The notes under the pieces: generated by a model
What the model was told of the DNA's origin: nothing
The model's input: only the letters and a program-made list of their open reading frames with translations
Databases searched by the model: none
Assembly: GCF_003334315.1 (NCBI RefSeq)
Contig: NZ_QOWR01000022.1
Length of the DNA stretch: 64,000 nt
Origin: Escherichia coli
GTDB lineage: Bacteria; Pseudomonadota; Gammaproteobacteria; Enterobacterales; Enterobacteriaceae
Reading direction: 5' to 3' (one strand)
Translations under genes and position numbers: made by a program
In this document: positions 55,982 through 56,176 of the stretch, piece after piece
Layout of the letters: the number at the start of each line of letters is the position of its first letter
How positions within the stretch are numbered: position 1 is the first letter of the stretch

Positions 55982-55992
55982 CACCAAAACTT

Positions 55993-56033
55993 GCTATGCA
56001 GAAATTTGCACAGTGCGCAATTTTCTGCATAGC
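55993..56033 (+). promoter_or_regulatory. AtoC-binding inverted repeat upstream of atoD
   Basis: GCTATGCAGAAA-N17-TTTCTGCATAGC; 12-bp arms are perfect reverse complements. Confidence 0.7.
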
Positions 56034-56115
56034 CGCTCATTCTCCTTATAACCCCCCATCCAATTTATCCCTTCATATTCAATTAGTTAAATAACTAAAT
56101 CCAATAATCTCATTC

Positions 56116-56131
56116 TGGCACTCCCCTTGCT
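56116..56131 (+). promoter_or_regulatory. Sigma-54 (-24/-12) promoter of atoDAEB
   Basis: TGGCAC-tcccc-TTGCT, about 45 bp upstream of the atoD ATG, consistent with the enhancer-binding AtoC upstream. Confidence 0.7.
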
Positions 56132-56176
56132 ATTGCCTGACTGTACCCACAACGGTGTATGCAAGAGGGATAAAAA

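Follow-up and report, generated by a model that had tools for sequence, protein, structure and literature searches.

The best-described relative of the region analyzed here is the atoDAEB promoter of Escherichia coli K-12 (Matta 2007, J Bacteriol 189:6324; Pilalis 2011, BMC Genomics 12:238). The control region of this short-chain fatty-acid operon is already known: the AtoC site, sigma-54 dependence, and in vivo occupancy were published between 2007 and 2015. The AtoC site is described as an experimentally verified inverted 40-bp palindrome composed of two 20-bp sites upstream of atoDAEB, which governs both acetoacetate inducibility and AtoC binding, as confirmed in vivo by ChIP, and which activates sigma-54-dependent expression (PMC3118216, citing Matta 2007). 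Table 5 of that paper gives the verified AtoC 20-mers as GCTATGCAGAAATTTGCACA (+ strand, −184 to −165) and GCTATGCAGAAAATTGCGCA (− strand, −163 to −144), numbered from the atoD start (Pilalis 2011, PMC3118216). Sigma-54 ChIP-seq yielded a peak (OS21) upstream of atoD with the motif CTGGCACTCCCCTTGCT, the EcoCyc status of which is experimentally confirmed (Bonocora 2015, PMC4591121), and genomic SELEX showed that RpoN holoenzyme binds the atoC>atoD spacer in vitro (Shimada 2021, PMC8743547).

Two further groups of systems are comparable. NtrC activation of glnAp2 likewise involves a phosphorylated NtrC-family regulator, paired dyads ∼100 to 140 bp upstream of a −24/−12 promoter, and ATP-driven activation of a closed sigma-54 complex. 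The NtrC dyad, TGCACCA-N3-TGGTGCA, is similar to the AtoC core, TTGCACA-N-TGCGCAA, but the signal for AtoC is acetoacetate, received through AtoS, and the regulon and half-site spacing differ. AtoC is also distinguished from NtrC by its score against the NtrC model (474.7 bits, under the cutoff of 558.6), and, unlike glnAp2, which is classically IHF independent, atoD has an IHF-like site in its spacer. The layout of upstream activating sequence (UAS), IHF bend (a putative one at atoD), and −24/−12 promoter is shared with NifA-nifH of Klebsiella and PrpR-prpBCDE of Salmonella, although these have other activators and other UAS sequences. The operon prpBCDE depends on PrpR, IHF, and RpoN (cited in PMC2965739), and its prpB promoter motif, GTGGCACACCCCTTGCT, closely resembles that of atoD. 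The activator gene of the ato locus adjoins directly upstream and on the same strand, and the UAS therefore begins only 11 nt past the atoC stop codon.

We analyzed a 64,000-nt stretch of E. coli DNA (here called the window), in which the region between atoC and atoD is almost certainly the enhancer-dependent promoter of atoDAEB, consisting of an AtoC dyad, a putative IHF bending site in the spacer, and a sigma-54 −24/−12 promoter. The interpretation given in the original prediction, made from the sequence alone, is supported. AtoC binding, sigma-54 binding, and sigma-54-dependent activation are published, while the features and their conservation were computed here. Understanding of the system is unchanged and little is added biologically; the analysis serves as a positive control, in that a textbook enhancer, bend, and sigma-54 promoter were recovered from raw sequence alone at base-pair accuracy. 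What is new is the comparison across genera and the AtoC recognition core derived from it, TTGCRCA-N1-3-TGYGCAA.

The atoSC-atoDAEB locus

RefSeq annotation of identical E. coli DNA identifies the locus as rcsC-atoSC-atoDAEB, with the gene order rcsC, atoS, atoC, atoD, atoA, atoE, atoB, and yfaP. The window has 100% identity with strain RCAD0514, and several E. coli chromosomes match the 1.2 kb surrounding the atoC-atoD spacer with 100% identity. The window is not K-12 DNA: it has the same locus, element, 20-mers, distances, and sigma-54 17-mer as the K-12 promoter and differs from a K-12-like genome only at two spacer positions (56052 and 56053, CC versus AT), which lie outside the palindrome, the IHF-like site, and the promoter. 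The 1.2-kb atoC-atoD region was found, annotated as atoC and atoD, in 3926 of 5426 complete E. coli genomes.

About 28% of the complete E. coli genomes lack the region (window positions 55500 to 56700). A single plasmid record contains it, and near-identical atoC genes occur in four records of a plasmid collection, two of which are chromosome sized and probably mislabeled.

The atoC gene (54596 to 55981, + strand) encodes an NtrC-family sigma-54 enhancer-binding response regulator of 461 amino acids plus a stop codon, TAA at 55979 to 55981, according to both NCBIfam and RefSeq. The products of atoS, atoC, and atoD all score well over the curated cutoffs of NCBIfam equivalog models, AtoC with 1001.6 bits against a cutoff of 714 (NF008469) and AtoD with 444.7 bits against 315 (NF007394). 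AtoC has the receiver aspartate D55, an AAA+ domain with the GAFTGA sigma-54 contact loop (residues 220 to 225), and a C-terminal helix-turn-helix (HTH), LGISRRALMYKLQEY. A sigma-54 promoter thus has its cognate enhancer-binding protein encoded next to it, and the earlier view that the arrangement is coherent with AtoC as a sigma-54 activator holds. The first gene of atoDAEB is atoD (56177 to 56839, + strand; ATG at 56177 to 56179), which encodes acetate CoA-transferase subunit alpha, as given by NF007394, the open reading frame list, and RefSeq. A Shine-Dalgarno sequence, GAGGG, can be read directly at 56165 to 56169 on the + strand, 7 nt ahead of the ATG.

Many E. coli records (P0083, P0085, and similar) hold an AtoC of ∼310 amino acids, 99% identical over 67% of the query. 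These proteins lack a Response_reg (PF00072) Pfam match, and P0083 alone is found on 295 contigs, which points to an atoC allele, truncated at the N terminus or frameshifted, that is widespread in some lineage.

AtoC site, spacer, and sigma-54 promoter

Reading of the sequence and a repeat finder both gave the 41-bp palindrome that had been predicted at 55993 to 56033. It is imperfect, GCTATGCAGAAATTTGCACA-G-TGCGCAATTTTCTGCATAGC, with arms of 20 nt each (55993 to 56012 and 56014 to 56033) on either side of the single central base G56013. The arms are complementary at 18 of 20 positions (90%), and complementarity is perfect over the outer 12 nt of each arm. No other inverted repeat in the 64-kb window has 20-nt arms with at least 18 matches and a spacer of 0 to 5 nt, and the best inverted repeat in 200 dinucleotide-preserving shuffles reached 17/20, none attaining 18/20. 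A search of the window with the half-site consensus, allowing up to 3 mismatches, returned only the two arms (0.06 matches expected). Counted back from the ATG at 56177, the published AtoC 20-mers fall exactly on the left arm (55993 to 56012, + strand, GCTATGCAGAAATTTGCACA) and on the right arm (56014 to 56033, − strand, GCTATGCAGAAAATTGCGCA), letter for letter. The element, proposed as suited to a pair of AtoC dimers, is therefore identical in sequence and offset to the experimentally bound sites, and no differing AtoC site appears in the published data examined here.

The center of the dyad lies 103 bp upstream of the TGG of the −24 element, within the range of ∼80 to 150 bp upstream of −24/−12 that characterizes a UAS. 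Its core, TTGCACA-G-TGCGCAA (56006 to 56020, without strand), is kept in all orthologous loci in the form TTGCRCA-N1-3-TGYGCAA. A division of the palindrome in which each 20-bp arm is a GCA-N6-TGC dyad of its own, with centers 19 bp apart, describes E. coli and Azospirillum and fits most genera, but it was demoted because Entomohabitans has neither of these dyads and Enterobacter and Morganella have only one, whereas the central core is present in all loci.

The sigma-54 motif was also found where it had been predicted. TGGCACTCCCCTTGC, an exact TGGCAC-N5-TTGC, occupies 56116 to 56130 (+ strand), and a sigma-54 pattern scan of the window gave no other exact match. Extended by one base (TGGCACTCCCCTTGCT, 56116 to 56131), it matches TGGCAC-N5-TTGC(W) exactly, and its doublets, GG at 56117 to 56118 (−24) and GC at 56129 to 56130 (−12), are exactly 10 bp apart. 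The 17-bp promoter CTGGCACTCCCCTTGCT (56115 to 56131, + strand) is the motif of the ChIP-seq peak, and its occupancy by sigma-54 rests on the published ChIP-seq and genomic SELEX data (PMC4591121, PMC8743547). The distances originally estimated at about 100 bp and 45 bp were right: T56116 is 103 bp from the palindrome center at 56013, and 46 nt separate C56130 from the atoD ATG.

Transcription is predicted to start at approximately 56139 to 56142 on the + strand. In the 2007 work of Matta, the palindrome or footprint is said to span −146 to −107 relative to the transcription start site (TSS), which presumably puts the start at 56139 to 56140, within 3 nt of the position 56142 predicted by the ChIP-seq rule. 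The latter places the TSS of atoD 35 nt before the gene (“Distance 35” in Table 1 of PMC4591121): the motif center at 56123 plus 19 gives 56142, which is 35 nt ahead of the ATG at 56177.

An IHF-like site, ATTCAATTAGTTA (56077 to 56089, + strand), with 1 mismatch to WATCAANNNNTTR, is located between enhancer and promoter. The IHF consensus is weak, with 68 matches in the window versus 52 expected. Nevertheless, position and constancy make 56077 to 56089 a putative IHF bending site. Six genera, counting E. coli, have a WWTCAR-N4-WTR match 39 to 40 nt upstream of the −24 TGG; perfect WATCAANNNNTTR sites stand 51 nt upstream of TGG in Pragia and Morganella; and none of the specified positions of the site varies in a set of seven Escherichia alleles (the window, five genomes spread over the identity range, and strain E69). 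Four of the 10 other Enterobacterales loci, and also Azospirillum, have no match to the relaxed pattern. Matta reportedly found, in 2007, that IHF is required at atoDAEB; in the literature searched for IHF together with atoDAEB, no statement of an IHF requirement was found.

Other short repeats were judged to be chance, since a stretch of 351 nt should contain about one 8-mer repeat. These are the direct repeats CTTGCTAT (55990 and 56126) and CTCATTCT (56036 and 56109) and a 9-nt inverted pair, TTTATCCCT/AGGGATAAA (56064 to 56072 and 56166 to 56174). The first arm of this pair precedes the TSS and varies (C to T in loci L006 and L014).

Orthologous loci and alternative readings

Orthologues were collected by an AtoC protein search, and ten loci with AtoC proteins 65 to 88% identical were looked up, from an Escherichia species, Klebsiella, Citrobacter, Enterobacter, Edwardsiella, Entomohabitans, Atlantibacter, Pragia, Leminorella, and Morganella. 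The order of atoS, atoC, and two CoA-transferase genes is the same in all ten Enterobacterales loci. An eleventh locus, on an Azospirillum oryzae plasmid (NZ_CP054618.1), is a full syntenic atoSC-atoDAEB with an AtoC that is 54.8% identical. The sigma-54 promoter is conserved at the orthologous position, TGGCAY-N5-TTGC being present in 11 of 11 loci, and the distance from its end to the atoD ATG is 41 to 49 nt in Enterobacterales and 204 nt in Azospirillum. The upstream dyad with the core TTGCRCA-N1-3-TGYGCAA is likewise present in 11 of 11 loci, i.e., wherever atoC-atoD synteny holds, Azospirillum included. Measured from the −24 TGG, the dyad center lies 103 to 106 bp upstream in eight loci, among them that of E. 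coli, 119 bp upstream in Entomohabitans, ∼137 to 140 bp upstream in Morganella, Pragia, and Leminorella, and ∼115 to 125 bp upstream in Azospirillum. Core columns are invariant in a nine-genus alignment (A2), and in Pragia, Leminorella, and Azospirillum the same heptamers stand 2 or 3 nt apart. A GGGA/AGGG run is kept at the place of the atoD Shine-Dalgarno sequence. The sequence between the elements diverges across genera, but the three-part layout and its spacing are kept from Escherichia to Morganella and, in outline, as far as Azospirillum. The 11 loci and the seven Escherichia alleles are few and are not phylogenetically independent, the alleles being related to one another.

In Azospirillum, the complete atoS-atoC-atoD-atoA-atoE-atoB module (locus L028) spans 4106 to 11812, with the spacer at 7387 to 7762. 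This spacer contains a perfect 22-bp palindrome, GCTGCGCAAAATTTTGCGCAGC (7408 to 7429), plus CGCACAAAGTTGCGCA (7431 to 7446), and an exact TGGCACATCCATTGC (7544 to 7558) followed by a long GC-rich leader of ∼190 nt. The synteny suggests that the whole regulatory module has spread horizontally.

A scan of contigs for the outer palindrome half plus the promoter with a variable gap gave 19 loci, among which only that of E. coli E69 was a true orthologue; the pattern demanded too close a match for other genera, in which the outer arms differ. It also caught other pairs of a palindrome and a sigma-54 motif in unrelated metagenome-assembled genomes (MAGs) (L008, 4609 to 4741, and L025, 13329 to 13452, both on the − strand). 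These pairs, e.g., CAGAAATGTGTAATTATTACACATTTCTG in a MAG of Deferribacteres and CAGAAAGTGACAATTATTGTCACTTTCTG in one from a gammaproteobacterium, look like the enhancers of other activators.

Chance statistics do not make the sigma-54 motif remarkable, since ∼25% of shuffled 64-kb windows contain at least one exact TGGCAC-N5-TTGC (10 specified bases), and atoD could in principle be transcribed from a sigma-70 promoter in the spacer, with the motif a coincidence. The weight of the motif comes instead from position, conservation, and published binding data. It is conserved, and its distance from the atoD ATG is fixed, across 10 other genera of Enterobacterales, whereas the surrounding spacer diverges; it is bound by sigma-54 in vivo and by RpoN holoenzyme in vitro (PMC4591121, PMC8743547); and no sigma-70-like −35/−10 pair was found in 55600 to 56500, where shuffles gave 1.9 expected. 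A sigma-70 start, named at the outset as an outcome that would speak against the prediction, does not appear in the published data examined here. We regard this explanation as very improbable, and the published sigma-54 ChIP-seq data and EcoCyc status refute it. Still less credible, to the point of being negligible, is an inverted repeat that arose by chance or as a selfish element (REP/BIME-like, or the remnant of an IS end) without regulatory function. The palindrome is intergenic and near a gene end, a frequent REP location, but it is single copy in the window, its dyad core is kept together with synteny as far as Azospirillum, and it is ChIP positive for AtoC (PMC3118216). An Rfam scan of 55700 to 56500 returned nothing relevant, the sole match being a nematode snoRNA with an E value of 0.55.

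More substance attaches to a role of the palindrome at the transcript level, in addition to or instead of AtoC binding, as a 3′ hairpin of the atoSC mRNA that acts in termination or 3′-end protection and whose outer arms are kept for pairing. Folded as RNA, the element gives a stable stem-loop (−23.3 kcal/mol; z = −7.8 versus shuffles), but the sequence 3′ of the hairpin (CGCTCATTCTCC) has no U/T tract of the kind found in intrinsic terminators, and two terminator scans gave nothing on the + strand at the palindrome. The outer arms are completely different among genera (GCTATGCAG/CTGCATAGC in E. coli, CGGACCGGGAA/TTCCCGGTCCG in Entomohabitans, and CCAGGCAA/TTGCCTGG in Atlantibacter), and yet their symmetry is preserved by paired changes: both-side changes preserve the dyad at 9 of 22 positions in 13 cells across nine genera, a score reached by 0 of 500 shuffles, and slid controls score far lower. 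Since the recognition helix of AtoC, LGISRRALMYKLQEY, is invariant across the compared genera, a shift in what the protein recognizes is not a ready explanation for the paired changes. A protein that binds as a dimer or tetramer would nonetheless impose symmetry on its own site, and a mismatch in the core (A22/C28 of A2) that is kept in 6 of 9 genera fits the protein reading better than pairing. Pragia and Morganella have a separate hairpin-plus-T-run terminator between atoC and the enhancer, Leminorella has a weaker one, and the enhancer of these three genera consists only of the core plus an extra half-site, with no extended palindrome. This association is semiquantitative and comes from perhaps two to three independent lineages, and the hairpins of Morganella (bulged) and Leminorella (long loop) were seen by eye and were not flagged by the automated terminator scan. 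The published data already explain the element as the AtoC site, and they exclude a solely transcript-level function. A dual role in E. coli and its close relatives, as AtoC enhancer in DNA and as a 3′ hairpin of atoSC RNA that limits read-through or stabilizes the transcript, is in our opinion unlikely. If true, it would explain the symmetric arm substitutions despite the invariant AtoC helix, the position of the element 5 to 22 nt past the atoC stop codon in those genera, and the core-only dyad in genera with a separate canonical terminator.

For the enhancer-dependent promoter, we propose the following mechanism, in which oligomerization, looping, and the ATP-driven step are taken over from NtrC-class activators. 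Acetoacetate would activate the kinase AtoS, leading to phosphorylation of AtoC, and AtoC dimers on the two 20-bp sites of 55993 to 56033 would assemble into an AAA+ oligomer (ring), while sigma-54 RNA polymerase would wait as a closed complex on 56115 to 56131. Bending of the A/T-rich spacer with its IHF-like site would then allow the AtoC oligomer, ∼103 bp upstream, to touch sigma-54 via GAFTGA. ATP hydrolysis would open the promoter, and transcription would proceed from ∼56139 to 56142, ∼35 nt before the atoD ATG. The definition of the AtoC core could help in the annotation of ato-type operons and in the design of biosensors for acetoacetate or short-chain fatty acids.

Variation within Escherichia

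Among the seven Escherichia alleles, variable sites are concentrated outside the functional elements. They number 2 of 41 in the palindrome, 1 of 13 in the IHF-like site (at an unspecified position), 0 of 17 in the promoter, and 2 of 45 from the −12 element to the ATG, compared to 22 of 68 in the two spacers (Fisher P = 1.3e-5 for functional elements versus spacers, in a small sample of related alleles). Both palindrome variants affect symmetry: A56003T, in strain EC17CM6, weakens it, and T56021A, in strain E69, raises it to 19/20.

The atoD 5′ untranslated region (UTR) (56143 to 56164) is unusually conserved, as reflected in the low count between the −12 element and the ATG. The sequence GTACCCA...GG(A/T)GTATGCAA recurs in the atoD 5′ UTR of Klebsiella, Citrobacter, Enterobacter, and Entomohabitans, and small palindromes, e.g., TCCGAATTCGGA, are found at the same place in Pragia and Leminorella. 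This conserved stretch may represent a post-transcriptional control element or a constraint of promoter melting.

Two kinds of rearrangement were observed in individual strains. The sequence TGGCACTCC occurs twice, in the sigma-54 promoter (56116 to 56124) and 149 bp downstream inside atoD (56265 to 56273), and strain CUVM53 (L007, 2660 to 2690) has a deletion exactly between the two copies. Lost with the deletion are the −12 element, the 5′ UTR, and 87 nt from the start of atoD, a gene that RefSeq lists as a partial pseudogene in this strain. In strains 63-2 (L027, 695 to 1458) and T28R, IS1A lies between the atoC stop codon and the palindrome and is flanked on both sides by ∼12 nt of window sequence, CACCAAAACTTG (55982 to 55993). 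Enhancer and promoter are intact in both strains but are separated from atoC, and the annotation of 63-2 gives atoC as a pseudogene interrupted by an internal stop.
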